A stretch of 64,000 nucleotides of DNA, taken from the NCBI GenBank assembly GCA_018882785.1, contig VERI01000006.1, positions 11,811 through 75,810 of the forward strand, read 5' to 3'. Position 1 is the stretch's first letter; each line of letters starts with the position of its first letter. The translations under genes were made by a program, and so were the position numbers. The notes beneath the pieces were generated by a model. It saw only the letters and a program-made list of their open reading frames with translations. It searched no databases and had not been told where the DNA came from. This DNA comes from Burkholderiaceae bacterium. Lineage in GTDB: Bacteria > Pseudomonadota > Gammaproteobacteria > Burkholderiales > Burkholderiaceae_A. Shown in pieces: positions 13,067 to 30,405 of the stretch.

Positions 13067-13076
13067 TAAGACATCC

Positions 13077-13760: not shown

Positions 13761-13761
13761 C

Positions 13762-15522: not shown

Positions 15523-16748
15523 CACGATGTAGCCTGTTTCGGAAGTAGGCCGGCCAGAGCAACGCCCTCATCTGCAGCCTGCTCAGGCGTAGGGAAGACC
15601 TGCTGATCCAGCAGTCTGCGCCCGGCCATATGGTCCTGCGGCCGATTCAGGCTATCCAGTCCAATGAGAGTTGTGCCACGAAAATAAAAGATCGAACACT
15701 TATAGGTCGCCACATCACCACGAATCACCGACAGATCATGGTCTGCAGATGTGCCAACCATCTGAAGTTTCACATCGTACTGATCAGACCAAAACCAGGG
15801 TGCTGCTGAAAACGGACGTTCCTTGCCCATGATCGTGGCCGCGCATGCCTTGGCCTGTTCGATTGCATTTTGTACCGACTCAAGGCGCCGCAGACGTCCA
15901 TCTGCAAGCCGCATAGCGGTGCAGTCTCCGCAGGCAACAATAAATGGATCTGATGTACGGCCACTGGAATCGACCACTACACCTGACTCGCAGACTAGCC
16001 CCGCGGCATCGGCAAGTTCCTGATTGGGAATCACACCAACGCCGACGACGACCAGATCTGCGCTGATAATGCTGCCATCACTCAGAGTCACACCAGATAC
16101 CGCACCATTTGCCGATACAAATCCAGCGACTCCCGACCCCAACCGCACGGATACCCCTCGCTCGGCATGAAGCCGCGCATATATCTCGGAGATCTGGGCT
16201 GAGACTGCCCGTGCCATGAGGCGGTCGGCCGCCTCAATGACAGTGACTGATTTGCCTTTCTTTCGGGCGATTGCCGCAAACTCAAGGCCGATAAAACCAC
16301 CCCCAATCACAGCGATACTGCCCGCCGCTTCCAAGCCCTGAGCAATACGCGTGGCGTCATCCAGAGTACGCAGTGCGAATACACCCTGCAGGTCAGCGCC
16401 CGCCAGCTGACGGGCGCGGGCACCGGTGGCAAGCACCAGACGGTGATACGGCAGGCTGCTGCCGTGACTGAAATGTAGTGTTTTCTCTTCGCGGTCTATC
16501 CGCTCGACACGAATACCAGTACGCAGGGTAATTTGCTTTCGGGCCAGGGCATCGGGTCCGCGCATCGTGAGCTGCTCAGCAGAAGACTCCCCCGACAGAT
16601 AAGTCTTTGAAAGCGGCGGCCGGTGATAAGGCGCGTGGGTCTCGTCTCCCAGCAGGATGACATCACCCTGCCAGCCTTCGGCACGGATTGCCTCAGCAGC
16701 CTGCAGGCCAGCCTGGCCAGCACCGATGATGACAATGGGAAGATTCAT
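15522..16748 (-). CDS. FAD-dependent ferredoxin-NAD(P)+ reductase (putidaredoxin-reductase type)
   Basis: Two dinucleotide-binding motifs (VIIGAGQAG and VIGGGFIGLE) and a C-terminal reductase domain. The start is either ATG 16748 or TTG 16766. Confidence 0.85.
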   Translation of the reverse strand: MNLPIVIIGAGQAGLQAAEAIRAEGWQGDVILLGDETHAPYHRPPLSKTYLSGESSAEQLTMRGPDALARKQITLRTGIRVERIDREEKTLHFSHGSSLPYHRLVLATGARARQLAGADLQGVFALRTLDDATRIAQGLEAAGSIAVIGGGFIGLEFAAIARKKGKSVTVIEAADRLMARAVSAQISEIYARLHAERGVSVRLGSGVAGFVSANGAVSGVTLSDGSIISADLVVVGVGVIPNQELADAAGLVCESGVVVDSSGRTSDPFIVACGDCTAMRLADGRLRRLESVQNAIEQAKACAATIMGKERPFSAAPWFWSDQYDVKLQMVGTSADHDLSVIRGDVATYKCSIFYFRGTTLIGLDSLNRPQDHMAGRRLLDQQVFPTPEQAADEGVALAGLLPKQATS

Positions 16749-16778
16749 AGGCGCTTCGCGACTCAACGCAACGCTGAC

Positions 16779-17102
16779 CTAGATCTGAGTCTCGGGAAGT
16801 CTCACCACGAGACCCGCCAGATCCTCGGACATTTTGATCTGACACGACAGACGGCTATTGGCACGAATCTCCGCAACCGCGTTTTCGAGCATGTCACGCT
16901 CACCCTGCTCTGCCGCCGGCACCTGATCGGCATGAGATTCAATATAACAATGGCAGGTTGCACAGGCACAAGAGCCACCACACTCTGCCTCGATGCCCTC
17001 GACGCCATTGCTGGTTGCCGCCTGCATCAGGCTCCAGCCAACAGGAACATCAATGGTGACCTTGTTTCCAGAGGGTTCGATATACGTTACCTTGGGCATC
17101 AT
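16779..17102 (-). CDS. [2Fe-2S] ferredoxin (adrenodoxin/putidaredoxin type)
   Basis: 107 aa with the cluster motif CGGSCACATCHC plus a distal Cys (RLSCQ). Confidence 0.9.
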   Translation of the reverse strand: MMPKVTYIEPSGNKVTIDVPVGWSLMQAATSNGVEGIEAECGGSCACATCHCYIESHADQVPAAEQGERDMLENAVAEIRANSRLSCQIKMSEDLAGLVVRLPETQI

Positions 17103-17119
17103 ATTTCCTTCATTCGCTA

Positions 17120-18286
17120 TTAGTGAATCTTTACCAGGTCGAGCCGCATCGGGCTGCGGAACGTCGAAGACGGTATCCAGGGCAGTTGATCAGCGGCCCT
17201 TCGATAATCGGGCACGATCTTGTGAAACTCTTCCATTGCGGTCTTCACGGCAAGACGTGCAATCATCGTTCCAAGGCAGGCATGTACGCCACCGCCAAAT
17301 CCGAGATGGCCCCGAGGCTTACGGCCAATGTCATACACGTCTGCATTCGGAAACTGGCGCTCATCTCGATTACCCGCGCCATAGGCTAGGCAGACAAAAT
17401 CGCCCGCCTTCATCTTCTGCCCATGCAGTTCGAGATCTTTTTGCAGGCAGCGACGAAAGCGTTGCGCGGACGTGTTGTACCTCAGGGATTCTTCGATTGC
17501 ATCCGGCAATAAAGAAGGATTCGCTACACACTGACGTCGGGCCTCTGGGTGGTCGGCCAGGTTGTATACGAACATCGACATAAAGCCCGCCAAAGACTCC
17601 ACACCCGCCATAATCAGCGTGGTAGTTGTTAGCAATACCTCGCGCTCATCAAGCCGATCGCCATCAATCTCTGCCATCGAGAAATGAGAAATTAGATCGT
17701 CCTTGGGATTCTTGCGACGCTCTGCAATCACTTGCGCGGCGTAATCCTGCATCCATTGATAGGCCGCAAGATGCTCCGGCCCCTTGGTGCGTGTGGCGGG
17801 ATCGGACTGGACCATCAAGACGGCCTTTTCACGTGCAGTCGCCTCGTCGCCGGTCGGCAGACCGAGAACTGACCATAACACCTTCACGGTGAACTGTGAT
17901 GAGAACTCGGTAATGAAATCAAATTGATCCTGATCGGCAAGCGGCGCGGCCACCGAGCGTGCAATCTCGCGGATCGGTTCTGCGAGACTCTCCAGATTGC
18001 GACGCATAAAGGCATGCTGAATCAGGCCGCGCAGCCGATCGTGTCGGGGGGGATCTGTAGTGCCCAGCGTGTTGCCTGCCCGATTGGGCAGCTCGGTCAT
18101 GAGGTTGCCCTTTGCTGAGGAGAATGTCTGCCAGTCGTTAAGCGCTGTGACGATGTCTGTATACCGAGACAGGACCCACATATTGGCCTCTCGACTCCAG
18201 AAGGCGGGATGCTCATCTCGAAGCGTCTTATAAAACGGAAACGGATCTGCATCCACCGCTGGCGAATAGGGATCAAAGCTAAACAT
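17120..18286 (-). CDS. cytochrome P450 (class I, three-component)
   Basis: Heme-thiolate loop FGGGVHACLG, ExxR (EESLR) and I-helix AGVESL. Start set at MFSFDPY, which follows an AGGAGA Shine-Dalgarno; the longer ORF to 18376 is rejected. Confidence 0.9.
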   Translation of the reverse strand: MFSFDPYSPAVDADPFPFYKTLRDEHPAFWSREANMWVLSRYTDIVTALNDWQTFSSAKGNLMTELPNRAGNTLGTTDPPRHDRLRGLIQHAFMRRNLESLAEPIREIARSVAAPLADQDQFDFITEFSSQFTVKVLWSVLGLPTGDEATAREKAVLMVQSDPATRTKGPEHLAAYQWMQDYAAQVIAERRKNPKDDLISHFSMAEIDGDRLDEREVLLTTTTLIMAGVESLAGFMSMFVYNLADHPEARRQCVANPSLLPDAIEESLRYNTSAQRFRRCLQKDLELHGQKMKAGDFVCLAYGAGNRDERQFPNADVYDIGRKPRGHLGFGGGVHACLGTMIARLAVKTAMEEFHKIVPDYRRAADQLPWIPSSTFRSPMRLDLVKIH

Positions 18287-18464
18287 GACCGTGTCTCCTG
18301 TTTTGATCGTGATGTTTCGACCCGCCCGACCCGGCATTGACCGGGGCTGCTGGTGATGGCTAGAGGCTAGGCCCAATGGGAGGCCGAGCGAATGGACAAT
18401 TTAGTCAAAAACTTGTACTTTTTTTACAAATTAGGCCAAAAATCGAGGAAAACCAGGGACAGAA

Positions 18465-19397
18465 TTGCAAAAAAATCGCATCTCGAATGCTCCCAGCCCG
18501 GTTCTGGCGCCGACCTTCTCGCTCTACGGCGAGGCCCAGACCTCGGTCTCCCCCGAATTTATTCATATCGAAGAAATCTCGGCGCGCAGCGCTGCGCGAA
18601 ACTGGCAGATTGAATCTCACACCCATGAGGGCCTGCTCCAGTTCCTGTTTGTTTTTTCGGGCACCGCACGGATTCAGTTAGACGGCAGCGAGCAGGACTA
18701 TGAGTCGCCGCTGGCGGTGGTAATTCCGCCTCGGGTGATACATGCCTTTAAGTTTCTGCCACAGACCGAGGGCTATGTTCTGACGCTGGATGCGGACGGA
18801 CTTGCAGGCCAGTCTGAAGAGGCCAGTCGAATGTTTTCCGTACTGCGCACCGAAGCCGACGTGATTGGCCTGAATCGCACCAATCAGTCCATCCAACGAT
18901 TCCGCAGTCTTTTGGAACAGATCGATGTCGAGTTCCGTGCGCCAGGCGTCGCAAGCACACGGCTCTTTGTCTGGCTAATTCGTGCACTACTGCTGCTCCT
19001 GGTGCGTGAGCGGCTGCGATCCGAGCAGGAATCTCATGATCATGCCGCGGATCTTACAGATCAATTTCGTACTTTACTCGAGGCACACTTCACCGAGCAC
19101 TGGCCAGTGCAAGACTATGCACGCCAACTCAATCTCACAGAAAGCAGACTGAATCGACTCTGTCAGCACAGATTTCAGCAGACCGCATTTGGACTGATTC
19201 AGTCGCGCCTTCTGCTCGAGGCAAGACGAAAGCTGGTCTATACCGGCACCTCGATATCCCAGCTCTCTTATGAACTGGGATTTACTGATCCCGCTTATTT
19301 TTGCCGCTTCTTTAAAAAGCTCACTGGATATGCGCCAAGCCGCTTCCGCGCCGAGGTCTCAAGGCGCCCCTCTCAAATCAATGATTTCTTGATCTAA
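18465..19397 (+). CDS. AraC family transcriptional regulator (PobR-like cupin N-domain)
   Basis: N-terminal LYGE...HTHEGLLQFLFVFSG...VIPPRVIHAF cupin and a C-terminal double HTH (GFTDPAYFCRFFKK). It is divergent from the P450 operon. Confidence 0.85.
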   Translation: MQKNRISNAPSPVLAPTFSLYGEAQTSVSPEFIHIEEISARSAARNWQIESHTHEGLLQFLFVFSGTARIQLDGSEQDYESPLAVVIPPRVIHAFKFLPQTEGYVLTLDADGLAGQSEEASRMFSVLRTEADVIGLNRTNQSIQRFRSLLEQIDVEFRAPGVASTRLFVWLIRALLLLLVRERLRSEQESHDHAADLTDQFRTLLEAHFTEHWPVQDYARQLNLTESRLNRLCQHRFQQTAFGLIQSRLLLEARRKLVYTGTSISQLSYELGFTDPAYFCRFFKKLTGYAPSRFRAEVSRRPSQINDFLI

Positions 19398-19445: not shown

Positions 19446-20627
19446 CTATTTCACCCGTCGGGCTGATGCGATGAATCGGGGCACGATCCACCGGCCGGCA
19501 AGCACGAGCAATAGACACCAAAACGCGACGCCCCAGGCATAGGGCCGGATACCCCCATCAAGACTGACGGAAAGATATAAGCCCGTCATCACGCCGGCCA
19601 GGGCCATCAGTAGACCTACCCACGATGATGCAGTGCCAGCCTTCTCGGGGAAAAGGCCTGGGGCAGCCGCATTGCTGCAGGGCTGATGAAATCCGTGTGC
19701 AAATCCAAACAACATCTGCATCAGCAACACCGGTGCGACCGCGCGAATCTCCAACCATCCCACGACGATTGCCAGGACTGCTGTCACCAGCGAGATCGTA
19801 CAGGCCGCCTGCATGGTACCCAGAAGCCCCCGCTTCGGAATCATTCGTCGGCAGACCAAGGTACCCACCAAATAGCTTGATGAGCCCATCGCAATCGCCG
19901 CTCCAAACTCCGTGGCAGACGCCTCGAGAAAACGCAGAAAAATAAATGGTCCACCGGAGAGCACCACAAACAAACCACCATACGTGCTTAACGCCACCAA
20001 GGACCAGGACAGAAAACCACGATGGGTCAGAATATCGATGTAGTTGGCTTTGAGTCCCTGCCACTGCGTGGCCTGGACACTTTTACTTGCGATCGTCTCC
20101 GGTACATATCGCCAGACCATCACCAAACCAATCAGACCCGCACAGGCAATCGCAACAATATTGGCGCGCCATCCCCAGATATCCATGAGCACGCCACCAA
20201 GCAGCGGACTGATAATGGCAATAACCCCGAGTCCCGACAGGCCCCGCGCAAGCACCTGCGCACCTTCACCGGTCTCATACAGATCCCGCACCATGGCGCG
20301 CCCGCATACCACCGAGGCCCCAAGCGCAGCACCCTGCACCATTCGCGATAGCAATAGCGCCTCCATGCTCACCGCCAACGCCCCCGCCAATCCGGTCGCC
20401 ACATATAGAAGGAGCCCCCAGAGCAACACAGGCTTTCTGCCCACCCGATCAGAAAGCGCACCCCAGATCAACTGCCCCAGGCCAAAGGCAATCATCGCTC
20501 CAAACATCGTGGCCTGGATCATGATGCTCGGCGCAGAAAACTCCTGACGAATGGCAGGCATCGCCGGGATGAAGAGATCGGTCAATACCGGCTGCAGTCC
20601 GAGCAGCACGGCAAGAAAAAGCGCCAC
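19446..20627 (-). CDS. MFS transporter (Bcr/CflA drug-resistance subfamily)
   Basis: Polytopic protein with the SDRVGRKPVL loop motif. The frame stays open upstream of the GTG, so the true start is uncertain. Confidence 0.75.
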   Translation of the reverse strand: MALFLAVLLGLQPVLTDLFIPAMPAIRQEFSAPSIMIQATMFGAMIAFGLGQLIWGALSDRVGRKPVLLWGLLLYVATGLAGALAVSMEALLLSRMVQGAALGASVVCGRAMVRDLYETGEGAQVLARGLSGLGVIAIISPLLGGVLMDIWGWRANIVAIACAGLIGLVMVWRYVPETIASKSVQATQWQGLKANYIDILTHRGFLSWSLVALSTYGGLFVVLSGGPFIFLRFLEASATEFGAAIAMGSSSYLVGTLVCRRMIPKRGLLGTMQAACTISLVTAVLAIVVGWLEIRAVAPVLLMQMLFGFAHGFHQPCSNAAAPGLFPEKAGTASSWVGLLMALAGVMTGLYLSVSLDGGIRPYAWGVAFWCLLLVLAGRWIVPRFIASARRVK

Positions 20628-20681
20628 TCTGGCCGCGCTCAGACCATGATGGACGCTAACGACATTCCCCTGTGTAATCGC

Positions 20682-21476
20682 TCACGCTGCTGAGCGGCCC
20701 AAGGCGTGGCCCAGCCGATGTGAAATCTGGTCGGCCGCATGCTTTAGGTCCCGGGCAATCGGTCCATCGAGATCGGCATCAAAAGTCTCAGCAGGGCCGA
20801 GCGCGGTGATGGCCAAGGCCAGCGCACCAAACTGATCAAACACTGCTGCGCTTAACGCATGAATACCCGGAATTGGCTGGCCGATTGCCTGAGCCATGGC
20901 ATGGCGCCGAATACGGGCCAGTTCCCCTGCCGGCAGGGCAACGTCGACAACTTTCTGGCCTTGGGCAACACGATCACCCAGGGCGATACCTTTTAAAGTC
21001 TCGAGTTTTTCCTCTGGCATGAATGCCGCAAAAATCTTGCCGGTCGCCGTTCGATTAACCGACATCACGGTACCGACCCGCATGTTGACGTGAATCGGCT
21101 GATGAGACTCAATCATTCGAACGACGGTCGGCCCAAGATTTCCCCACACCGCAATCACCACGGACTGATGAATTCTTTCGGCCAACTCCTCCATCAAGGG
21201 CCCGGCAATTTTCAACGGATCCAGCTGTCGCAGGCAGCTCAGGCCAAGCTGCAAGGCGGCTGGCCCAAGACGATACTGACCTGACTCTCGCTCCCGTTCG
21301 ATGAGTCCCAGCCGGCCGAAACTCACCAGATACGGATGGGCCTTGGAGGGAGTCATATCGGCGGCCTGGGCGAGCTCTTTAAGACCCATCGGCCCGGAAT
21401 GTAACGCCAGTGCATTGAGCAGCCGACCCCCAATCTCAATCGACTGTATCGAGCGTTGATTCTCGAATTCACTCAT
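20682..21476 (-). CDS. IclR family transcriptional regulator
   Basis: N-terminal HTH (SIQSIEIGGRLLNALA...MGLKELAQAADMTPSKAHPYLVSF) and a C-terminal effector domain. Start trimmed to MSEFENQ so that it does not overlap fahA. Confidence 0.85.
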   Translation of the reverse strand: MSEFENQRSIQSIEIGGRLLNALALHSGPMGLKELAQAADMTPSKAHPYLVSFGRLGLIERERESGQYRLGPAALQLGLSCLRQLDPLKIAGPLMEELAERIHQSVVIAVWGNLGPTVVRMIESHQPIHVNMRVGTVMSVNRTATGKIFAAFMPEEKLETLKGIALGDRVAQGQKVVDVALPAGELARIRRHAMAQAIGQPIPGIHALSAAVFDQFGALALAITALGPAETFDADLDGPIARDLKHAADQISHRLGHALGRSAA

Positions 21477-21486
21477 GGGGATCAAT

Positions 21487-22776
21487 TCAGTGTCGCGCCG
21501 CAAGAATCTGGCCGACGCACTCACCCAGTCCGATACGTACCGCATCTGACGATTCACAGTACGCTTTTAACACCACCACATCGCCGTCTTGCAAAAATGT
21601 ACGCGACTCTCCATTGGCAAGGGTGATCGGTACTTTGCCGCCGGATGTGAGCTCCAATAGCGAGCCTGCCTCGGATGGCGCGGGACCCGACATGGTGCCG
21701 CTGCCGAACAAATCGCCCGCCTGAAGGTTGCAGCCATTACTGCTGTGGTGGGTCACCATCTGGGCAAATGTCCAATAGGCGTAGCGCAGATTGCTCTTCG
21801 CAAGGCGCTGGGGCGGCTGACCGTCATGACGCATTTTTTCGGTCTGTAACGAAAACTCAAGCACCATATCGATGCCACCACGGCTACGGTCCTGGGGACT
21901 GCTGATATATGGCAAAGGCTGGGGATCATCGGCGGACCGCTCGGCAGGAACTCGAAAAGGCTCAAGGGCCTCCATGGTGACGATCCACGGTGAAATTGTT
22001 GATGCGAAATTCTTGGCAAGAAACGGTCCTAAGGGCTGGTACTCCCAGGCCTGGATATCCCTGGCAGACCAATCATTGAGTACACACAGGCCAAACAGAT
22101 GGTCTTCTGCGTGCGCAATCGGAATCGGATCACCCAGGGCATTTCCTGCGCCGATGAATGCGCCAACCTCGAGCTCAATATCGAGCCGCCTGCAGGCGCC
22201 AAACTCCGGCGGCGCACCGTCTGCAGCGGCCTTGATCTGGCCGGTGGGCCGCACGATCTGCTGGCCGCTGACACCAATCGATGATCCACGGCCGTGGTAG
22301 CCAATCGGCACCCACTTGTAGTTAGGCAGAAGTGGTGCATCCGGCCGAAACAGCTTGCCAACCGCCGTGGCATGATGAATCGACGCATAAAAATCGGTGT
22401 AGTCACCAATCGCACAAGGTAGTTGCATCTGGACATCAGACTGCGGCACCAAGGCTGCACGCAACGCTGAGGCCTCGGCGGCACCCGGACTGAGCCAGCG
22501 CGTGACCTTCGCACGAAAGGCCTTTCGCACAGACGCTCCCTGCGCCATAAAGCCATTCAAATCTCCTTGCCTCAGAAAGCCCGGGACCGCATCGGCGCCT
22601 AGAATCTCTGCCGCCAGCGTGCAGTCCAACACCTGATTGCCAATCGCAATTCCAATCCGAGCGGATGTATCGCCCGTCTTGCGGGAAAACATTCCGTAGG
22701 GAAGATTTTCGATTGGGAAATCGGTCTCGGGATGATTGGCGCTTTCTACCCAGCTGCCTTGGGACTTTTTGCTCAC
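21487..22776 (-). CDS. fahA: fumarylacetoacetase (eukaryote-type, with N-terminal FAH domain)
   Basis: 429 aa with ENLPYGMF near the N-terminus, then GYHGRGSS, LNDWSARDIQAWEYQPLGPF and GDLFGSGT blocks. Confidence 0.88.
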   Translation of the reverse strand: MSKKSQGSWVESANHPETDFPIENLPYGMFSRKTGDTSARIGIAIGNQVLDCTLAAEILGADAVPGFLRQGDLNGFMAQGASVRKAFRAKVTRWLSPGAAEASALRAALVPQSDVQMQLPCAIGDYTDFYASIHHATAVGKLFRPDAPLLPNYKWVPIGYHGRGSSIGVSGQQIVRPTGQIKAAADGAPPEFGACRRLDIELEVGAFIGAGNALGDPIPIAHAEDHLFGLCVLNDWSARDIQAWEYQPLGPFLAKNFASTISPWIVTMEALEPFRVPAERSADDPQPLPYISSPQDRSRGGIDMVLEFSLQTEKMRHDGQPPQRLAKSNLRYAYWTFAQMVTHHSSNGCNLQAGDLFGSGTMSGPAPSEAGSLLELTSGGKVPITLANGESRTFLQDGDVVVLKAYCESSDAVRIGLGECVGQILAARH

Positions 22777-22791
22777 AGTCAGTGGCCCCAG

Positions 22792-23325
22792 TTATTGGAC
22801 AGAGCCGTCATGCATCCAGCGTGCATGATCGGGCGCCCGTTTGGTTTTGCTCCACTCATTGAGCATATCCCACTTCACGCGATCCAGATCCTGCATCATT
22901 TTTGGAGTGCCGGTGTTGACCGCGAGCTCTAATCGATGGCCATTGGGATCAAAAAAATAGATAGATTTAAAGATGGTGTGATTGGTTGGCCCAATTACCT
23001 CTATGCCATCCTGCTCCAGACGGGCTTTTGCCACCAGTAATGCATCCAGACTGTCGACCTCTAAAGCCAAATGCTGGACCCAGTTTGGGGTATTCAGATC
23101 ACGGGACATGTCGGGGCTATTGGGAAGTTCAAAGAACGCCAAAATATTTCCACCACCCGCATCTAGAAAAACATGCATATACGGATCAGGCGCCTTGGTC
23201 GATGGCACTTCATTTTCTGCAATCGCCAATACAAAGTTCATATTCAGGTACTTCTGATACCACTCTACGGTCTGCTTCGCATCTTTGCAGCGATAGGCGA
23301 CATGGTGGATTTTTGATAGCTTCAT
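22792..23325 (-). CDS. VOC (glyoxalase / extradiol dioxygenase) superfamily protein
   Basis: 177 aa with HHVAY, HLALEV and HRLEL, consistent with a 2-His-1-Glu metal site. Confidence 0.75.
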   Translation of the reverse strand: MKLSKIHHVAYRCKDAKQTVEWYQKYLNMNFVLAIAENEVPSTKAPDPYMHVFLDAGGGNILAFFELPNSPDMSRDLNTPNWVQHLALEVDSLDALLVAKARLEQDGIEVIGPTNHTIFKSIYFFDPNGHRLELAVNTGTPKMMQDLDRVKWDMLNEWSKTKRAPDHARWMHDGSVQ

Positions 23326-23343
23326 CAGTAGCTCCCTTCGTGT

Positions 23344-23577
23344 TTAGGACGGCATCACAGATTCACGGGCCAGTCGAAAGGCTTCGCGAAGAATACGCAG
23401 ATCGCCAATGTGATTGGATAAAAACAGCACCAACTTGGCGTTTAGTTCGTGGCTCTGGGCGTCGGTGAGCCCCTCATGGGTCTGTATCAATGCCTCGTAG
23501 AAGTCGTCGCCGGGGCTGAATTCGCGAAACACAGGCTTCTCAAGATCTTTGAAATTGGGCTCTGTAATTAACGGCAT
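23344..23577 (-). CDS. DUF2783-type small protein
   Basis: 77 aa. The LNAKLVLFLSNHIGD block matches my recollection of DUF2783 and the gene sits in an operon position. Confidence 0.55.
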   Translation of the reverse strand: MPLITEPNFKDLEKPVFREFSPGDDFYEALIQTHEGLTDAQSHELNAKLVLFLSNHIGDLRILREAFRLARESVMPS

Positions 23578-23594
23578 GGCGATATCCCTTTCAA

Positions 23595-25262
23595 TTAGTT
23601 ACAGGTGGCCCGAGCCAGCGCGGCCCGAAGAGCATCCATGGTGGGCTTACGCCAGCGGGCCGCAATGTGCTGATCCGGACGAACCAGATAGGCAGTGCCC
23701 TGCTCTGCGTCATACCGCTCTTTAAACCGGGACTTAAGATCAATCAGCACTTTTACACTGTCTGCGCAGGCAGCAGCCACGGTCGCGTTGGCAGCAATCA
23801 CAATCGGGGTGAGCCCAATTCCCCGGATACGACATGCCTTGATATCGGCAATCACGGCATCTGCAGGCGGTTCACGGTCGACATACAAAAGCACAATGAA
23901 TTGATTGGCCACATGACGCAGCAGCCAGCCCTGCTGGCCCTGATCGCTCACGGGAGCATCGTCCATTGGCGCTCCCGGAATCATCTTGCCGGAAAAAGGC
24001 TCCTGGTCCGGGGTATTGAGGCTAGACGTATAGAGAAACGATGGCACCGAGAGCCTGCCTGAATTCACCAGCGCGCGGGCAAATCGATACTGCCGCGCGA
24101 GATCCAAAACCGAATTCCGAAATAACTTGCTCACGGCGGATTTTGGCGTAATGAAGTCGGTAGACCGGGTGGAGTTCATAATGTTTTCATCCGCCGCGTA
24201 CGCCCGCTCTTCGTTATACGACTCCAGTAGCCGCTCGGGCGCATGACCATCCATGACCAGCTTTAACTTCCAGGCCAGATTATCGGAGTCCTGCAGACCG
24301 GAATTCGCGCCACGGGCACCAAAGGGAGAGACCTGATGGGCGGCATCGCCCACAAAAAATATCCGGTGGTGCCGAAAACTTTTCATTCTGCGGCACTGAA
24401 AGGTGTAGACACTGACCCACTCAAGATCGAACTCATGCTGCTCGCCAAGCATCGCCTTGATCCGAGGAATCACCTTTTCTGGTTTTTTCTCCTCTTCGGG
24501 ATCGGCATCCCAGCCGAGCTGAAAATCAATTCTCCAGACATTATCTGCCTCGCGGTGCAGAAGAACAGACTGATTCGGATGAAACGGCGGATCAAACCAG
24601 AACCAACGCTCTGCAGGAAAGTCCGCCTTCATCACGACATCAGCGATCAGAAAACGATCCTGAAATACCCGGCCTTCGATATCTAAGCCCAGCAGGCGGC
24701 GAATCCCGGAGCGGGCGCCATCACCCACGATCAGCCACTCGACATCCAGCATGTAATTGCCATCGGCAGTCTCCACGGTAATCGTGGAGTCGGCCTCGCG
24801 GGCATCGACTGCAACAACCTTGTTCTGCCACCGGATTTCGAGATTCGGCAGCGCATTGGCCCGTTTCAACAGGAACTCTTCAAGGTAGTACTGCTGCAGA
24901 TTGATCATGCCAGGCCGCTCATGATCGGGCTCGGGCGAGAGATTAAATGAGTAGACCTCGTCATTGCGATTAAAGGTGCGGCCAACATTCCATGACACCC
25001 CCTTATCGACCACCATCTGGCCAGCGCCGAGCCGATCCAGAATCTCAAGGGCGCGCTTGGCATAGCACAGGCCGCGCGAGCCAACCGACACCGTGTTGTC
25101 ATCATCGAGCAGGAGCACATCACATCCCTGCTGTGCCAGGTCAACCGCCGTGGCCAGACCCACTGGGCCCGCGCCCACCACAACAACACGGCGTGAGGAT
25201 CGCTGGCCGATCTCAGCAGGACAACGGTATTCGAACTTCGGATAGCGATAGGTCGACAACAT
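23595..25262 (-). CDS. FAD-dependent aromatic-ring monooxygenase (PheA/TfdB/MhpA-like, with C-terminal thioredoxin-like domain)
   Basis: Contains VVVVGAGPVGL, GDGARS and GDAAHQVSPFGARGANSGLQD. At 555 aa it is the long group A hydroxylase type. Confidence 0.85.
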   Translation of the reverse strand: MLSTYRYPKFEYRCPAEIGQRSSRRVVVVGAGPVGLATAVDLAQQGCDVLLLDDDNTVSVGSRGLCYAKRALEILDRLGAGQMVVDKGVSWNVGRTFNRNDEVYSFNLSPEPDHERPGMINLQQYYLEEFLLKRANALPNLEIRWQNKVVAVDAREADSTITVETADGNYMLDVEWLIVGDGARSGIRRLLGLDIEGRVFQDRFLIADVVMKADFPAERWFWFDPPFHPNQSVLLHREADNVWRIDFQLGWDADPEEEKKPEKVIPRIKAMLGEQHEFDLEWVSVYTFQCRRMKSFRHHRIFFVGDAAHQVSPFGARGANSGLQDSDNLAWKLKLVMDGHAPERLLESYNEERAYAADENIMNSTRSTDFITPKSAVSKLFRNSVLDLARQYRFARALVNSGRLSVPSFLYTSSLNTPDQEPFSGKMIPGAPMDDAPVSDQGQQGWLLRHVANQFIVLLYVDREPPADAVIADIKACRIRGIGLTPIVIAANATVAAACADSVKVLIDLKSRFKERYDAEQGTAYLVRPDQHIAARWRKPTMDALRAALARATCN

Positions 25263-25274
25263 CGCGCGGCCCCT

Positions 25275-26237
25275 TTACTGTTGCAATGCCTGCCACATTT
25301 CCTGATCCCGCTGTGCGGTCCAGATACGGGGGTGTTTGATGCCGCTGGCCTCATCAAAGGCACGGGTCACATCAAACGGCAGGCAGTGCTCATAAATAAA
25401 CACGCTTGCAAATTTTGGGTCCATCTTGGCGCGAACATGGGCCATGGTCGCTTTCAGATCCTTGCCGGCCTTCACGGCCTCCTGTGCAGATTCGTACAAC
25501 GTCGACACAAAATCACGGGTATAAGAAATTCCCGCCCGAACCTCTTCCGGAGTCTTTAACGCCGGGCCACGGCCGGGCACAAGCTTTGCGGCATTCAGCT
25601 TCGCAAGGCGCTCTAGCGTTGCTGGCCACTCGGCAAGATGCGCATCACCGGCATAACAGGCGGCGTCATACTCGACGAGATCTCCCGAGAACAGCACCTT
25701 TTCACCGGGCAGCCAGGCGATGGTGTCCCCCTTGGTATGGCCTGCACCAAGTTGCTTGATCTGCACTTCCAGCTTACCCATCCAAAGCGACATCTCACCG
25801 GTAAAGGTCATCGTTGGCCAGGTGAGCCCCGGCACGGATTCCACCGCCTGAAATAGCCTTGGAAAACGGCCGATTTCGGAGTCCATGTCCTGCTGGCCGC
25901 GCTCCACAATCAGATCGTAGGTGTCACGGCTGGCAATAATCTGCTCAAGTCCTGCATCGCGATAGCCAGATGCGCCCAGCACACGCACCGCGTGATAGTG
26001 GGTTAACAAAACGTATTTAATCGGCTTATCGGTAAGGCTGCGAACCCGATCGATGACCCCCTTGGCCATCACGGGCGTGGCAGTCGCATCGATGATCATC
26101 ACCGAGTCATCACCGATGATGATGCCCGTGTTCGGATCCCCTTCGGCGGTATACGCCCAGGCATGCTCCGAGAGCTGCTCAAAACTGACTTTTTTCTCTT
26201 CTAAATCGGCCTGGGATGCGAATGCTTTGGTCGTCAC
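25275..26237 (-). CDS. MBL-fold protein with a degenerate metal motif
   Basis: MBL blocks are present, but HxHxDH reads HYHAVR and the distal His reads Arg (VPGRGP). GTG start preceded by a GGAGGAG Shine-Dalgarno. Confidence 0.75.
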   Translation of the reverse strand: MTTKAFASQADLEEKKVSFEQLSEHAWAYTAEGDPNTGIIIGDDSVMIIDATATPVMAKGVIDRVRSLTDKPIKYVLLTHYHAVRVLGASGYRDAGLEQIIASRDTYDLIVERGQQDMDSEIGRFPRLFQAVESVPGLTWPTMTFTGEMSLWMGKLEVQIKQLGAGHTKGDTIAWLPGEKVLFSGDLVEYDAACYAGDAHLAEWPATLERLAKLNAAKLVPGRGPALKTPEEVRAGISYTRDFVSTLYESAQEAVKAGKDLKATMAHVRAKMDPKFASVFIYEHCLPFDVTRAFDEASGIKHPRIWTAQRDQEMWQALQQ

Positions 26238-26266
26238 GGTGGTCTCCTCCCCCTGTTTTGAAATTC

Positions 26267-26296
26267 AGTTTAGTCAAATTAGTTTGATATTGTCAA
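26267..26296 (-). promoter_or_regulatory. sigma70-type promoter of the MBL/monooxygenase/VOC/fahA operon
   Basis: The minus strand reads TTGACA, an 18-nt spacer, then TAAACT. A GGAGGAG Shine-Dalgarno and the GTG start at 26237 follow. Confidence 0.5.
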
Positions 26297-26298
26297 AC
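26282..26298. promoter_or_regulatory. perfect 6-5-6 palindrome overlapping the -35 (candidate IclR operator)
   Basis: GTTTGA-tattg-TCAAAC. Confidence 0.35.
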
Positions 26299-26342
26299 AA
26301 CATCAACTCTCGCTGAGCAACGGGGCTATCGGGACACCCTAT

Positions 26343-27368
26343 TTATCGGGCCAGGCCCACCCCCTGGTTGACGAACTGAAACACCGCTACCCGGGACAGG
26401 TCGACCTCGCCTGGCCGATACAGGCCCGCCCGAACCATCTGTTGATAGAAATCCTCAATCCGGCCTTGGTTCATGGCCCCAATCCCCTTGGTCTTGGCCT
26501 CCCCGGATTCCACCAGGCCCTGACGCTTGATCAGCAGCACCGAGGCTTCGATCTCCTGAATGGAGATATCGGGGTTGTCCTTCATGATCAGCGCATTGGC
26601 GGCAGTCCGATCGCCATTGAGAAAGCGTTGCCATCCCAGAATAGAGGCATTCACAAACCGCTGCACCAGGTCAGGATTGCTCTTGACCAGCTCAGTACGG
26701 GTCTCAATCAGCGTGCTGTATGTGGAGAACCCATGATCGGCCAGCAGATGCACCACGGGTGCAAAGCCACCCTGAGACTGAACATAAATCGGCTCTGCAA
26801 CCGAATACCCCTGCTGAATCGCCTTGGGATTACTTAAAAACGGCGCCAGATTAAAGTGATAGGGACGAAGCCGTTCATCCTGAAATCCATGAACGGCCTT
26901 TAGCCACTGCCACCACGTGAACTGCCCATCTTTTGCAATGAGGGCAACCGGCGCGTCTTTCATGCGTGCAAAAGACTCATAGCCCTGGCCAGGATGGGCG
27001 ATCAAGGCCTGCGGATCTTTTTGAAAGATTGCCGCCACAACGACAACAGGAATCTTGTTTTTGACATTGTCAAAACTGTGCAACAGATTGCCGGTCATTA
27101 GAAAATCGATTCGGCCTGCGGGCAGTAGGGGGCGATTGTTCACTTGCGGACCACCCTGACGAATCGTGACCTCCAGGCCATAGCGTCGATAGGTGCCATC
27201 CGCAAGCGCCTGATAAAACCCACCGTGCGCCGCCTGAGCCCGCCAGTTGGTTGCAAAGACAACCTTGTCTGCCGCCTGCGCCACTAACGCCGAGCCCATA
27301 ATGATGGGCCACGCAATTAGCCAAGAGGCAAAGGTTAGACGCTTCACGGGTTTAGATCTCCTGTTCAC
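26343..27368 (-). CDS. ABC transporter substrate-binding protein (NMT1/THI5-like)
   Basis: Signal peptide ending VAQA-AD and SBP size. It lies downstream of a matching permease and ATPase. Confidence 0.8.
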   Translation of the reverse strand: MNRRSKPVKRLTFASWLIAWPIIMGSALVAQAADKVVFATNWRAQAAHGGFYQALADGTYRRYGLEVTIRQGGPQVNNRPLLPAGRIDFLMTGNLLHSFDNVKNKIPVVVVAAIFQKDPQALIAHPGQGYESFARMKDAPVALIAKDGQFTWWQWLKAVHGFQDERLRPYHFNLAPFLSNPKAIQQGYSVAEPIYVQSQGGFAPVVHLLADHGFSTYSTLIETRTELVKSNPDLVQRFVNASILGWQRFLNGDRTAANALIMKDNPDISIQEIEASVLLIKRQGLVESGEAKTKGIGAMNQGRIEDFYQQMVRAGLYRPGEVDLSRVAVFQFVNQGVGLAR

Positions 27369-28137
27369 TCACCACCGGCCATCGCCGAAATGCCCACCGC
27401 GAGAGTTGCACAAAAATAAGGTTCAGCATCACACCGGTGAGCACTAAAAGTACGAGTGCAGCGAACATCTTAGGCGTCTCAGTGCGAAAGCTCGCCTCCA
27501 GAATCCGTGATGCAAGGCCCGTCTCGCGGCCGGCAGCACCCGCCACCATCTCGGCCGTTACCGCACCAATCAGACTCAATCCCGCCGAGATCTTCAGTCC
27601 GGCAAAAAAATACGGCAGCGCGCTGGGTAGCCGCAACAGCTGCAGCCGTTGCCATCCGGACGCCTGATAAAGCCGGAACAGATCGGAAAGATGCGGATCA
27701 ATGGTCCGCAGGCCAGTCATGGTGTTCGACAAAATTGGAAAAAACGCCACAATCCAGGCGCATAGCAGCAGTGCGGCCGTTGTACTGTCGAGATAAATCA
27801 GGATTAAGGGTGCGATGGCAACAATCGGTGTCACCTGAAGCATCACGGCAATCGGAAATAACGCCCGCTCGAAGAGAACAGACAGTGAAAACGCAGCGGC
27901 AATCACAACACCCCCCAGGGCTGCCAGGGTCAGCGCTCCCAGGGTAATTTTTAGGGTGGTCCACCAGCTCATGAGCAACGATTCACTATGCTGCGCGAGC
28001 GTCTGCAGCACAAGACTCGGCGCCGGAAGCGTGTAGGCCGGCAGTTCGAACAACCACACCAGACTCTCCCAGACAATGAAGAATGCGCCGACTGACATCA
28101 CCGCGCCGAGCGCAGACGGCTGACGAAGACTCATCAC
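27352..28137 (-). CDS. ABC transporter permease (NitT/TauT family)
   Basis: 261-aa polytopic protein in operon context, overlapping the ATPase gene by 4 nt. Confidence 0.85.
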   Translation of the reverse strand: MMSLRQPSALGAVMSVGAFFIVWESLVWLFELPAYTLPAPSLVLQTLAQHSESLLMSWWTTLKITLGALTLAALGGVVIAAAFSLSVLFERALFPIAVMLQVTPIVAIAPLILIYLDSTTAALLLCAWIVAFFPILSNTMTGLRTIDPHLSDLFRLYQASGWQRLQLLRLPSALPYFFAGLKISAGLSLIGAVTAEMVAGAAGRETGLASRILEASFRTETPKMFAALVLLVLTGVMLNLIFVQLSRWAFRRWPVVSEQEI

Positions 28138-28889
28138 ACACTCCCCTGACGGCTCTCGGCCTCGATGACATCGCTCAATCGATTCACCGTCTGAAGGAAA
28201 AAAGGACTGGACATGAATTCCTGGTCGCGGGTAGCAGGCTCAGGTACTTCAATTACGTCGATAATCCTGCCGGGGCGGGCACCCATTGCAATGACACGCT
28301 GCCCCAACAAAACGGCCTCCGAGAGCTGATGGGTCACCAACATGACGGACATCTTCTCTTGTCTCCACCAGCGCAGAAGATCCTGGCCAAGTCTCTTGCG
28401 CGTGAAGTCGTCCAGTGACCCAAAGGGCTCGTCCATGAGGAGTAGTCGCGGACGGGTCACCATGGCCCTTGCAATCGAGACCCGCATACGCATGCCGCCT
28501 GATAACTGTGCAGGCCGCAGCGTTGCCACATCGGCCAGTCCAACCACATCCAGCAGCGAGTGAATACGCGCAGCAGACTGCGCGCGCGACACTCCCGCCA
28601 GCCGCAGTGGCAGCCAGATATTGTCAAAAACACTCGCCCAGGGCATTAAGGTGGCATCCTGAAATACAAACGCAACCGACCCGGATACCCCCAGCGCGCC
28701 ATCTCGGGTGATGCGCCCCGATGTCGGCTGATCAAGTCCTGATGCAAGTTTTAAAAGTGTGCTCTTGCCACATCCGGAGGGGCCCACGATGGTGAGGAAT
28801 TCATTTGCATGCAGCGAAAAAGACACGTGTTCTAGCGCGGCGCGCTGTCCGGGAAACGTTCGGCTGACCTGCTCAAATTGCAGCAACAT
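28134..28889 (-). CDS. ABC transporter ATP-binding protein
   Basis: Walker [10 protein letters not shown], signature LSGGMRMR and Walker B LLMDEPFGSLD. Confidence 0.9.
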   Translation of the reverse strand: MLLQFEQVSRTFPGQRAALEHVSFSLHANEFLTIVGPSGCGKSTLLKLASGLDQPTSGRITRDGALGVSGSVAFVFQDATLMPWASVFDNIWLPLRLAGVSRAQSAARIHSLLDVVGLADVATLRPAQLSGGMRMRVSIARAMVTRPRLLLMDEPFGSLDDFTRKRLGQDLLRWWRQEKMSVMLVTHQLSEAVLLGQRVIAMGARPGRIIDVIEVPEPATRDQEFMSSPFFLQTVNRLSDVIEAESRQGSV

Positions 28890-28922: not shown

Positions 28923-29399
28923 TTATGCCGCAGGAATCAGCCCTGACAGCAGGCAGACGCAGGCGACAATCGATAGGTGCGCCCGTAGCCGGGGATACCA
29001 GGCGGGCAGAGAGATTCGATTTGCAAGCGCCGCATCCTGCCAGTAGGCCAGCGCAAACCCCGAGACCAACAAGGTGAGTGAGAGCGACGAATTCAGGCCG
29101 ATCGCAGCAATGCCGATCAGCGCAGGAATGACGCTCCAGATATAGCATTGGGTCCTGCGCGCACGATCTACGCCCGGGGCCATCATGGCAACCCCCCAAT
29201 GCAAGGCGCCAACAAAACTCAGAATCACCGCACCATAGGCAACCAGCAACAACAGCCACTGATCCGCACGGCCCAGAAGATTCAGCCATCGAAACGTCGC
29301 AAACGCAATAAACGGAATGAGTCCGCCATACCCCAATATGCCCACCACGGGTGGCGGGCGCATCGACGCATGGGGTGCAGCGGGGGGCTTCATGCCCAC
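28923..29399 (-). CDS. DUF3429-type integral membrane protein
   Basis: 158 aa with about 4 TM segments. Blocks GYGGLIPF and YGAVILSFVGALHWG are present. Confidence 0.6.
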   Translation of the reverse strand: MGMKPPAAPHASMRPPPVVGILGYGGLIPFIAFATFRWLNLLGRADQWLLLLVAYGAVILSFVGALHWGVAMMAPGVDRARRTQCYIWSVIPALIGIAAIGLNSSLSLTLLVSGFALAYWQDAALANRISLPAWYPRLRAHLSIVACVCLLSGLIPAA

Positions 29400-29403
29400 T
29401 AGA

Positions 29404-30405
29404 CTACAGACCCGCAGGCTTTTTGAAAAATTCTGTTCGATCGATAGATTCGATCAACATCGGAAATCGTCTTCCCTCTCGCTCCACCTCTACGGGGATC
29501 TGGGTTCCTGCGCCGCCAAGAGACCAGGCCTTGCGATACAGGTCAAGCAAAGTGCGCACCTCGCTGCCCGCTACAGCAGTGATGAAATCGCCCGTGCGCA
29601 TTCCTGCACGATACGCCGGACCATCCTGGCTGACCCGAAGCACGGCAACGTAGCCGCTGCTGTCATCGGTGGTCACGCCAAGCCAGGGGTTGACCCGAGT
29701 TGTGCGACGTCCCTGAGCGATTAGATCAGCCTGTATCGGCTTTAAAAGATCAATCGGCACAAAGAGATTTCCGGGTGAATACACTCCGGGGGCCACCGCA
29801 TCGCGTACAAATAAAGAGCCGATCCCGACAAGCTCACCCTTTTCATTGAGAAGTGCTGCACCAGCCCAGGCCGCGCTTGGCGGGAAGGTATAGATCGGCG
29901 ACTCCAATAAGTACTCCCAGCTTCCCGCAAAAGGCCTTCGGGACACCAATTGGGTTGCAGCTCCAGGGCCAAGGCCCTCGAAGGGCAAGACAATCATCAG
30001 CTCTTGATCTGCGAGGGCAGACGATGATCCGACGCTGATCGGTTTTAACTTAATCGGCAGTATTGGTTTTAGTAACGCGAACCCAGTGGCATGATCGAAT
30101 CCCACCACCTTGGCCGGGTAAGTGGCCCCTGTTGGCAGGGTCACATCGACCTGCTCGGACTCAATTACGAGGTAGCCGATCGTGAGAATGTGGCCATCCG
30201 TATCGATGACCACCCCAGACCCGAAGCGGTTTCTGCCCAGCGTGGCATTCGAGCGGGCATCCTCGACCGCACGGCTCTGCACTGCCACAACAGAATCGCG
30301 TAGCGCCATGAGGGGATCGACTGCCGCCGGCTGAGCCCGAAGCGGCAGCGCAATCACCTGAAGGCCCATCAGGGCCGTGAACATCAGCAATGCGGCGCGG
30401 CACAT
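29404..30405 (-). CDS. HtrA/DegS-like trypsin-fold plus PDZ protein with a substituted catalytic triad (predicted pseudoprotease)
   Basis: Signal peptide, S1C blocks and a C-terminal PDZ are present. The canonical His, Asp and Ser positions read Tyr, Gly and Ala (details in findings). Confidence 0.75.
   Translation of the reverse strand: MCRAALLMFTALMGLQVIALPLRAQPAAVDPLMALRDSVVAVQSRAVEDARSNATLGRNRFGSGVVIDTDGHILTIGYLVIESEQVDVTLPTGATYPAKVVGFDHATGFALLKPILPIKLKPISVGSSSALADQELMIVLPFEGLGPGAATQLVSRRPFAGSWEYLLESPIYTFPPSAAWAGAALLNEKGELVGIGSLFVRDAVAPGVYSPGNLFVPIDLLKPIQADLIAQGRRTTRVNPWLGVTTDDSSGYVAVLRVSQDGPAYRAGMRTGDFITAVAGSEVRTLLDLYRKAWSLGGAGTQIPVEVEREGRRFPMLIESIDRTEFFKKPAGL

Follow-up and report, generated by a model that had tools for sequence, protein, structure and literature searches.

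Homogentisate-forming hydroxylases acting on hydroxyphenylacetates have been described in several bacteria. The 3-hydroxyphenylacetate (3-HPA) 6-hydroxylase MhaAB was reported from Pseudomonas putida U (Arias-Barrau et al. 2005, as described in PMC3053370), and the homologous pair of Burkholderia xenovorans LB400 owes the name MhaAB to 47% and 35% identity with its P. putida U counterparts; MhaAB is reportedly highly specific for 3-HPA (PMC3053370). The 4-hydroxyphenylacetate (4-HPA) 1-hydroxylase of Delftia (Pseudomonas) acidovorans, HPAH/HPAC (EC 1.14.13.18; patent US8124846B2; Raspail et al. 2011, J Biol Chem 286:26061, as described in PMC9338888), is attributed to hpaH, converting 4-HPA to "metabolite Z", and hpaC, converting metabolite Z to homogentisate, and two-gene clones of this enzyme gave no homogentisate (PMC9338888, PMC8058095). 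As for the cleavage of homogentisate, a VOC-type 1,2-dioxygenase from Acinetobacter has been deposited as PDB 9U42 (Seo, Hwangbo, Kim and Park 2025, Proteins 93:2150-2157, doi 10.1002/prot.70020). PMC13572102 (preprint 10.1101/2025.10.30.684093) cites that work and gives homogentisate 1,2-dioxygenase as the function of the A. baumannii homologue; the title of the paper, as cited there, describes a fold that mimics glyoxalase I with its function not shared.

The window analyzed here, a 64,000-nucleotide stretch of contig VERI01000006.1 from a Burkholderiaceae bacterium, contains a cluster that is very probably an IclR-controlled catabolic operon converting a hydroxyphenylacetate via homogentisate to fumarate and acetoacetate. 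The features are as follows.

19446-20627, minus strand: MFS transporter, 393 aa (PF07690, Bcr/CflA-like; TIGR00710 at 194 bits, slightly under the cut-off)
20682-21476, minus strand: IclR-family regulator, 264 aa from ATG 21476 (PF09339 and PF01614)
21487-22776, minus strand: two-domain fumarylacetoacetase (FAH), 429 aa (PF09298 and PF01557; TIGR01266)
22792-23325, minus strand: VOC (glyoxalase-fold) protein, 177 aa (PF00903), homogentisate 1,2-dioxygenase by homology
23344-23577, minus strand: DUF2783 protein, putative small partner of the hydroxylase, 77 aa (PF10932, 88 bits)
23595-25262, minus strand: group A FAD monooxygenase, 555 aa (PF01494, 198 bits; NF006002/PRK08132, 831 bits)
25275-26237, minus strand: MBL-fold protein, 320 aa (PF00753)
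26267-26296, minus strand: promoter-like site TTGACA-18-TAAACT (consensus scan and direct sequence reading)
26283-26297, overlapping the -35 hexamer: imperfect palindrome TTTGACAATATCAAA, candidate IclR operator
26343-28889, minus strand: NitT/TauT-type ABC importer (binding protein 26343-27368, permease 27352-28137, ATPase 28134-28889)

A preliminary description of this DNA had reported seven co-directional minus-strand genes separated by 10-54 nt. ORF reading and the profile search of the window confirmed their coordinates, sizes and families, with gaps of 12, 17, 18, 15, 10 and 54 nt from the MBL gene to the MFS gene, as well as the ABC importer upstream on the same strand. The MBL gene has a GTG start with a GGAGG ribosome site ahead, and the most likely start of the IclR gene, judged from the sequence, is ATG 21476, 10 nt past the FAH stop codon. 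The "one good promoter" of the same description held in part. The TTGACA-18-TAAACT site matches the consensus at 10 of 12 positions and lies inside the 105-nt gap 5' of the MBL gene, but promoter-like sites across the region were no more frequent than in shuffled sequence (5 versus 6.6 expected), so that the promoter of the MBL gene is to be read as a consensus match only. In L030, the locus most closely related to this one, the GTTTGACAATATCAAA core was kept 5' of the MBL gene, and the sequence farther upstream differs.

The VOC protein matched the Acinetobacter enzyme 9U42 with E = 8e-76 and 63% identity, while the next matches, including weak ones to Fos and glyoxalase models, reached just 19-26% identity. 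The AF2 model (pLDDT 91) showed paired beta-alpha-beta-beta-beta modules with a C-terminal helix, and its comparison with the 9U42 structure gave TM-scores of 0.83/0.87 and an rmsd of 2.2 Å. The protein consists of a single PF00903 domain spanning residues 5-134. Three residues, H8, H85 and E133, did not vary among 18 family members with identities as low as 33%, and their positions in the VOC fold, rather than the 9U42 coordinates, suggest that they are the metal ligands. Databases name the protein lactoylglutathione lyase or VOC family protein. On the 63% identity to the Acinetobacter enzyme, the 177-aa protein is a predicted glyoxalase-fold homogentisate 1,2-dioxygenase that would replace the absent cupin HmgA.

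The distribution of the family was surveyed in 301 genomes of the same order as the source organism. HPPD was found in 92 of them, accompanied by hmgA in 49 and by a divergent hmgA-like cupin in 12; among the 31 HPPD genomes having neither, 18 carried a VOC orthologue and five a relative with 39-48% identity. The VOC gene and hmgA can occur together: of all genomes with a VOC orthologue, 31 in number, 11 carried hmgA as well. In relatives, the VOC gene is flanked by HPPD and either maiA or phhA, or else precedes FAH. MaiA scored above its family cut-off in all five tested genomes having the VOC gene without hmgA.

The FAH gene product, with both the N- and C-terminal domains (PF09298 and PF01557) and 527 bits to the equivalog TIGR01266 against a cut-off of 375, is by this strong family assignment a bona fide fumarylacetoacetase. 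The absence of hmgA noted in the preliminary description extended from the window to the whole genome, as neither profile search for cupin hmgA (TIGR01015) nor tblastn with the HmgA of a relative detected it; as the genome is an 84-contig draft, this absence means that the gene was not found in a 98% complete assembly. The same two kinds of search found no other ring-cleavage candidate for the operon in the genome. The lack of maiA held for the contig of the window, which gave no match, but not for the organism: maiA is located on another contig (C57:24748-25374; TIGR01262, 268 bits against a cut-off of 171), beside paaABCDE and unlinked to the cluster. HPPD and phenylalanine hydroxylase were both absent from the genome, leaving the operon as the sole visible source of homogentisate.

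The hydroxylase and its neighbor were examined in 80 related loci. The orthologous pair lies beside hmgA, an hmgA-like cupin gene or a VOC gene: orthologues of the FAD monooxygenase with 54-69% identity adjoin one of these three in many genomes, and the same pair adjoins canonical hmgA-fahA-maiA in relatives. The DUF2783 gene starts 17 nt 3' of the hydroxylase gene, this order being seen in 66 of the 80 loci. It invariably follows directly on the hydroxylase gene, and in two loci (L056 and L082) it is placed like mhaB, between mhaA and hmgA, as in the layout given in PMC3053370. Homology and this LB400-type layout, mhaA-mhaB-hmgA, point to the FAD monooxygenase as the large component of an MhaA/HPAH-type hydroxylase that would form homogentisate from a hydroxyphenylacetate, and the adjoining hmgA, cupin and VOC genes of its orthologues suggest homogentisate as the product. 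The modeled complex of the hydroxylase and the DUF2783 protein scored 0.73, against 0.00 for the best control. Of 80 solved complexes, 58 attained this mark, as did 2 of 110 mismatched pairs; these counts apply only approximately, since our own alignments were used. At least 87% of the contacts were common to three runs, with a partner pLDDT of at least 85. The model supports binding of the DUF2783 protein to the hydroxylase as a predicted MhaB-like coupling subunit.

The MBL gene accompanies this hydroxylase closely. It was found in 60 of the 301 sampled genomes overall and in all 43 of the sampled genomes carrying the hydroxylase, in 31 of which the two genes are adjacent, and it lies directly 5' of the hydroxylase gene in 66 of the 80 related loci. 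Other genomes have it directly ahead of hmgA-FAH or VOC-FAH. Among solved structures, the nearest relative is PDB 8D2Z (E = 5e-152), an MBL-superfamily protein from Burkholderia cenocepacia to which no function is assigned. In place of the HxHxDH motif the protein has THYHAVR, with Asp changed to Val and His to Arg, invariant in five orthologues, as are H80, H82, H167 and D186. Its second metal site is degenerate, which places the protein outside the binuclear MBL hydrolases as defined by HxHxDH and a complete second site. Co-occurrence and gene position suggest that it may be a candidate finishing enzyme of homogentisate formation similar to HPAC. A review terms the D. acidovorans HPAC "a peptide", by which the DUF2783 protein could be meant instead.

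The operon would thus begin with ring hydroxylation by a complex of the FAD monooxygenase and the 77-aa DUF2783 protein, as homology and gene context suggest, and the MBL-fold protein would help deliver homogentisate. The VOC protein would cleave homogentisate to maleylacetoacetate, MaiA encoded on the other contig would isomerize the latter to fumarylacetoacetate, and FAH would complete the route by hydrolysis. The preliminary description had drawn much of this chain, from the monooxygenase via a para-diol similar to homogentisate to cleavage by the VOC protein and hydrolysis by FAH, and it gains support from the 63% identity to the 9U42 enzyme and from the hydroxylase/DUF2783 pair beside hmgA-fahA-maiA in relatives. 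Its further proposal of a variant route with an unknown substrate did not stand, because the route is already known in kind: two-component homogentisate-forming hydroxylases date from 2005, with a patent of 2008/2012, and the VOC-type dioxygenase was described in 2025. The substrate is narrowed, most likely, to a hydroxyphenylacetate, either 3- or 4-HPA.

For the first steps we prefer, at about an even chance, a reaction analogous to that reported for D. acidovorans, in which the hydroxylase would attack C1 of 4-HPA to give a quinol, whose side chain would then be moved in a 1,2-shift catalyzed by the MBL protein, the step reported for HPAC. The fuller proposal is more tentative and has slightly less than an even chance, namely that the degenerate MBL protein is a non-hydrolase rearranging the quinol (1-hydroxy-4-oxo-cyclohexadienyl acetate) to homogentisate, and that the MBL protein, the FAD hydroxylase and the DUF2783 protein form the complete 4-HPA 1-hydroxylase. 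Such a need for three genes would explain why the published two-gene clones gave no homogentisate. If this is true, an MBL gene lying ahead of hmgA or a VOC gene without the hydroxylase would feed in or recover this quinol where it arises in other ways, e.g., as an HPPD by-product or from plant jacaranone-type compounds.

The same pathway could also start with a true MhaAB-type 3-HPA 6-hydroxylase that makes homogentisate directly, leaving the MBL protein an accessory role, e.g., as a lactonase, esterase or thioesterase freeing the substrate or protecting the product. We consider this possible but rather unlikely. The assignment of the LB400 pair by identity to MhaA and MhaB of P. putida U and the reported high specificity of MhaAB for 3-HPA speak for it, and its hydrolytic helper would agree with the nearest relatives of known function, which are hydrolases (class B beta-lactamases and chlorothalonil dehalogenase). 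The Burkholderia MBL gene, moreover, has MFS transporter genes as its only partners, and this pairing would fit an enzyme that hydrolyzes an imported compound. However, a helper would be superfluous for direct 6-hydroxylation, and yet no hydroxylase-carrying genome of the sample lacked the MBL gene, which only a minority of all sampled genomes carries. The Asp of HxHxDH, used by hydrolytic MBL enzymes, is the residue replaced by Val here. In addition, 4-HPA 1-hydroxylase activity is reported for Azoarcus and Delftia relatives (PMC9338888, PMC8058095), and loci of Azoarcus, Thauera and Comamonas carry the MBL-hydroxylase-DUF2783 triad.

Departures from homogentisate itself appear much less probable. 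Group A flavin hydroxylases and VOC dioxygenases both differ widely in substrate, and some VOC-type enzymes, such as PcpA and LinE, are hydroquinone dioxygenases, so a different aromatic acid might be degraded through an analogue (gentisate, methyl- or chloro-hydroquinone) cleaved by the VOC protein, with FAH hydrolyzing the matching acylpyruvate. This is very unlikely, as FAH scored well above the fumarylacetoacetase equivalog cut-off, the VOC protein closely resembles 9U42, whose deposited name is homogentisate dioxygenase, and belongs to a family linked to HPPD, the only product of which is homogentisate, and the same hydroxylase triad feeds canonical hmgA in other genomes. Least probable of all, to the point of being nearly negligible, is that an unrecognized enzyme cleaves the ring and the VOC protein is a glyoxalase I, a resistance protein of the fosfomycin/bleomycin type or maleylacetoacetate isomerase. 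Its database names and the weak Fos/glyoxalase model matches would fit such roles, but those matches are far more distant than the one to homogentisate dioxygenase, the title of Seo et al. denies the fold mimic a glyoxalase I function, and the genome search offered no alternative enzyme for ring cleavage. The VOC gene and maiA occur in one operon in Thauera, Azoarcus and Aromatoleum, and the VOC protein is therefore not the isomerase.

An IclR gene accompanies most of the 80 related clusters, usually in divergent orientation. In Thauera aminoaromatica and a Comamonas MAG, the clusters end with homologues of the MFS transporter (39-43% identity); the transporter may serve in uptake or export. 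The ABC importer had no counterpart among the 80 related loci; in L030, a trypsin-PDZ gene (77% identical to window positions 29404-30405) directly adjoins the MBL operon on its 5' side, and ABC genes are absent from the interval. The importer is a possible uptake system and not a conserved member of the cluster.

The operon relates to the described systems as follows. Like the Acinetobacter 9U42 enzyme, as far as described, the VOC protein is made up of one VOC domain, about 180 aa long, with the same His/His/Glu positions, and its gene belongs to a homogentisate-pathway cluster with FAH and an IclR regulator in a genome without the cupin enzyme. The Acinetobacter gene is described with HPPD, maiA, fahA and scoAB in tyrosine breakdown (PMC13572102), whereas HPPD is absent here and homogentisate would come from a flavin hydroxylase instead. 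The P. putida U MhaAB and LB400 mhaAB-hmgABC systems share, by their published descriptions, an FAD hydroxylase of about 560 aa (555-566 aa) directly followed by a partner of 60-77 aa and linked to homogentisate cleavage and FAH; they differ in that the ring opener here is of the VOC type, not cupin HmgA, and an MBL-fold gene precedes the hydroxylase. The P. putida U cluster is not known to contain genes other than mhaA, mhaB and mhaC. The Burkholderia cenocepacia protein 8D2Z, a structural-genomics entry of 2023, is an orthologue of the MBL protein (about 64-69% identity in Foldseek alignments), although its gene is paired with MFS transporters and the present one with the hydroxylase. With the canonical hmgA-hmgB(fahA)-hmgC(maiA) system the operon would share intermediates and end products, and FAH and MaiA are of the canonical families, while cupin HmgA is absent and maiA is unlinked, on C57 beside the paa genes. 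D. acidovorans HPAH/HPAC resembles the proposed system, going by the published description, in combining a flavoprotein hydroxylase with a second protein, which acts on the hydroxylase product to yield homogentisate; the literature gives two components and the conserved gene set here comprises three, HPAC being compared by description only. D. acidovorans belongs to the same order as the source organism, and the MBL-hydroxylase-DUF2783 triad is widespread in that order.

The seven co-directional genes on the minus strand, and every family named for them in the preliminary description, were confirmed by Pfam and NCBIfam searches.

25275-26237, minus strand, MBL-fold protein (Pfam/NCBIfam)
23595-25262, minus strand, FAD monooxygenase, the hydroxylase (831 bits to NF006002)
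23344-23577, minus strand, DUF2783 protein (Pfam/NCBIfam)
22792-23325, minus strand, VOC protein (Pfam/NCBIfam)
21487-22776, minus strand, fumarylacetoacetase, FAH (equivalog model, 527 bits against a cut-off of 375)
20682-21476, minus strand, IclR regulator (Pfam/NCBIfam)
19446-20627, minus strand, MFS transporter (Pfam/NCBIfam)

The intergenic gaps were 12, 17, 18, 15, 10 and 54 nt. For IclR, the longest reading frame ran into the FAH gene, and translation probably begins at the ATG located 10 nt past the stop codon of FAH. 5' of the MBL gene, a GGAGG ribosome site was present together with a TTGACA-18-TAAACT consensus match, in agreement with the good promoter described earlier, although promoter-like sites in this region were no commoner than in shuffled sequence. 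A palindrome with 5-bp arms, TTTGACAATATCAAA, was spotted by eye as a candidate IclR operator, and a search with an inverted-repeat tool at seed 6 found none. Its core GTTTGACAATATCAAA, likewise a candidate IclR operator, overlaps the -35 hexamer and was kept in L030, where the sequence further upstream diverges. This closest related locus, from a Betaproteobacteria MAG, encodes an MBL protein 91% identical to that of the window, and its gene order agrees with that of the window, the downstream IclR gene included; a trypsin-PDZ gene stands directly before the MBL operon. Clusters of Thauera and Comamonas end in MFS homologues. The NitT/TauT-type ABC importer reported upstream of the cluster was indeed present, and no counterpart was found among 80 related loci, so the importer is not conserved with the cluster.

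Upstream of the cluster the window also carries genes for a trypsin-like peptidase with PDZ (29404-30405; also L030:7450-8454), a DUF3429 protein (28923-29399) and a protein like the alpha subunit of haem-dependent oxidative N-demethylase (PF11927; 32309-33250). In a genome of an unrelated family (G045), a lone VOC gene is directly preceded by a similar trypsin-PDZ gene (L015:9803-10777). On the other side, genes for a cytochrome P450 (17120-18376), a 2Fe-2S ferredoxin (16779-17102) and a ferredoxin reductase (15522-16766) occupy the minus strand, and a divergent AraC/cupin regulator (18465-19397) stands right beside the cluster; this set (15522-19397) is a separate oxidation module. Two Amidohydro_2 genes and the RraA-like aldolase gene between them (12134-14808) form a set that resembles LigJ/LigK-type steps in the gallate or protocatechuate 4,5-cleavage pathway.

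The cluster had been described as lacking hmgA and maiA. In the draft genome (2.17 Mb, 84 contigs, 98% complete), cupin hmgA was indeed not found by profile search or tblastn, whereas maiA was missing from the window only and was detected on another contig, C57 (268 bits against a cut-off of 171). There it adjoins a complete paaABCDE phenylacetyl-CoA oxygenase operon (C57 17000-36900, locus L007), far from fahA. Neither HPPD nor phenylalanine hydroxylase was found in this genome. None of the VOC, FAH, hydroxylase and MBL genes turned up in the seven genomes sampled from its genus (three) and its family (four), and the operon was therefore regarded as an accessory trait within a small 2.2-Mb genome. 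DNA-level identity to the same-genus genomes was only about 70%, which made synteny uninformative.

The earlier proposal that the monooxygenase product is cleaved or isomerised by the VOC protein and then hydrolysed by FAH is judged essentially right. The VOC protein matched PDB 9U42, a solved Acinetobacter VOC-type homogentisate 1,2-dioxygenase, with an E-value of 8e-76, and its AF2 model (pLDDT 91) showed 63% identity and TM-scores of 0.83/0.87 to this structure, the remaining structure matches being glyoxalase or Fos proteins at 19-26% identity. The residues H8, H85 and E133 were invariant in 18 family members with identity down to 33%. FAH exceeded its equivalog cut-off, and in many genomes orthologues of the hydroxylase (54-69% identity) adjoin hmgA, an hmgA-like cupin gene or the VOC gene. 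Thousands of VOC homologues exist, 78-82% identical across Betaproteobacteria and mostly labelled "VOC family protein" or "lactoylglutathione lyase". Our literature search retrieved nothing relevant linking homogentisate to VOC proteins and no paper matching 9U42; a 2026 paper on Acinetobacter sp. (PMC13572102) states that the A. baumannii homologue acts as homogentisate 1,2-dioxygenase and gives Seo et al. 2025 (Proteins 93:2150) as its source. Fused VOC forms, considered as a Rosetta-stone clue, showed no clear partner (P0136, P0241 and others).

The VOC protein stands in for HmgA and not for MaiA, because genomes carrying the VOC gene without hmgA have MaiA (five of the five tested) and VOC and maiA genes share one operon in Thauera, Azoarcus and Aromatoleum. 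In relatives, the VOC gene either has HPPD on one side and maiA or phhA on the other, or immediately precedes FAH; genes in GC-rich loci were identified by tblastn with a GC3 filter.

The distribution of these genes was surveyed across the order to which the genome belongs (Burkholderiales in GTDB, as inferred from named relatives), with one set of 301 genomes for every search. HPPD was present in 92 genomes, among which canonical hmgA occurred in 49 and a divergent hmgA-like cupin gene, mostly beside HPPD, in 12. The other 31 had neither; 18 of them possessed a VOC orthologue, five a relative at 39-48% identity and eight none, with completeness below 90% in four of these eight. The VOC family fills the gap in 23 of these 31 genomes. 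A genome-level anticorrelation between VOC and hmgA was not seen, hmgA being present also in 11 of the 31 genomes with VOC; the informative pattern is gap-filling among HPPD genomes and not mutual exclusion. An unpublished genome (G294) adds one count each to the hmgA, FAH, HPPD and MBL tallies, and no claim depends on it alone.

A strict bond between VOC and two-domain FAH was ruled out, as TIGR01266 was missing in 16 of the 31 VOC genomes. Pfam searches of three loci showed that the FAH encoded after the VOC gene there is a 340-aa protein with PF18288. In most VOC-type clusters the FAH is this 340-aa form with the N-terminal PF18288 domain (L011:9624-10646, L013:11272-12288 and in many other loci) and not the eukaryote-type TIGR01266 form, which the window shares with a few relatives (L030, L093, L103, L012). 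The divergent HmgA-like cupin (approximately 380-440 aa) aligns to TIGR01015 over positions 124-424 only, at 76-99 bits, and adjoins HPPD or an MhaA-like hydroxylase in many Burkholderiales (genomes G003, G034, G037, G089, G092, G104, G131, G136, G140, G146, G150, G159, G221, G231, G271 and G281). This cupin probably represents a third kind of homogentisate dioxygenase that has gone unannotated.

The motif of the MBL-fold partner, THYHAVR, has lost the Asp and the second His of HxHxDH, and H80, H82, H167 and D186 are invariant. It is an orthologue of 8D2Z, a Burkholderia cenocepacia structure without assigned function, and the ESM Atlas labels it only 'MBL fold metallo-hydrolase'. Its AF2 model, made from five sequences, was of low quality (pLDDT 63); apart from 8D2Z, the fold matches, for example to chlorothalonil dehalogenase (TM-score 0.62-0.65), are therefore no more than weak leads. 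In the 80 related loci, collected via this protein, the order MBL-hydroxylase-DUF2783 was found in 66, followed by VOC-FAH(PF18288)-maiA, VOC-FAH, hmgA-FAH(-maiA) or an MFS gene. The MBL protein occurred in all 43 hydroxylase genomes of the 301-genome sample, with the genes adjacent in 31, and in only 60 genomes overall. Some of the 17 without the hydroxylase have the MBL gene directly before hmgA-FAH or VOC-FAH, sometimes with genes for an FAD_binding_2 protein, an SDR and an EthD protein. These placements therefore put the MBL gene always just upstream of homogentisate consumption. The module without an MhaA-type hydroxylase (L019:6191-12322, L018, L016, L114:7454-14136) comprises FAD_binding_2 (586 aa, KstD-like), SDR, MBL, VOC or hmgA, FAH and EthD/MmlI genes, and this recurring module may supply homogentisate from another precursor or from one that is not aromatic.

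The 1-hydroxylation of 4-hydroxyphenylacetate (4-HPA) has been known since 1975. Two papers from one group described the enzyme of D. acidovorans as having two parts: hpaH turns 4-HPA into a "metabolite Z" that they leave unidentified, from which hpaC (HPAC, "1,4-dihydroxyphenylacetate mutase") makes homogentisate. They also reported that two-gene constructs gave no homogentisate (PMC9338888, PMC8058095). A need for three genes, MBL, hydroxylase and DUF2783, would explain this failure. We hypothesize that the MBL protein is HPAC, at chances a little short of even, the DUF2783 protein being the other candidate; a literature search on quinolacetate, mutase and 1-hydroxylase found no statement of the HPAC fold. 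If the MBL protein completes the side-chain shift, 4-HPA 1-hydroxylation would gain a gene and a solved structure (8D2Z), and cheap production of homogentisate or pyomelanin would become possible where the two-gene constructs failed.

The modelled complex of the hydroxylase and the DUF2783 protein scored 0.73, compared with 0.00 for the best control; 58 of 80 solved complexes attained this mark, as did 2 of 110 mismatched pairs, counts that are approximate as own alignments were used. Contact agreement between runs was at least 87%, pLDDT of the DUF2783 partner was at least 85, and the modelled interface covered hydroxylase residues 363-411. The model supports binding of the DUF2783 protein by the hydroxylase. 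Nothing relevant was found in the literature on DUF2783. The DUF2783 proteins fall into two length classes: in those of the window, Rhodocyclales and Comamonadaceae the conserved DDFYE is preceded by an insert of 11 residues (consensus KRYFRxFSPGD), whereas Cupriavidus, Paraburkholderia and hmgA-adjacent copies lack this insert.

The labels 'VOC family protein'/'lactoylglutathione lyase', 'DUF2783' and 'MBL fold metallo-hydrolase' are still attached to thousands of proteins, and because of them homogentisate pathways seem broken in many Betaproteobacteria. The route is not the unknown variant that the preliminary description had suggested, as VOC-type dioxygenase (2025) and two-component hydroxylases (2005; 2008-2012) were already described. 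The 3-hydroxyphenylacetate 6-hydroxylase of P. putida U, which yields homogentisate, consists of the 566-aa flavoprotein MhaA and the 60-aa coupling protein MhaB, and the gene order in B. xenovorans LB400 is mhaA-mhaB-hmgA-hmgB-hmgC (PMC3053370). The same order was found in the related loci L056, L082 and L092, with the DUF2783 gene at the position of mhaB.
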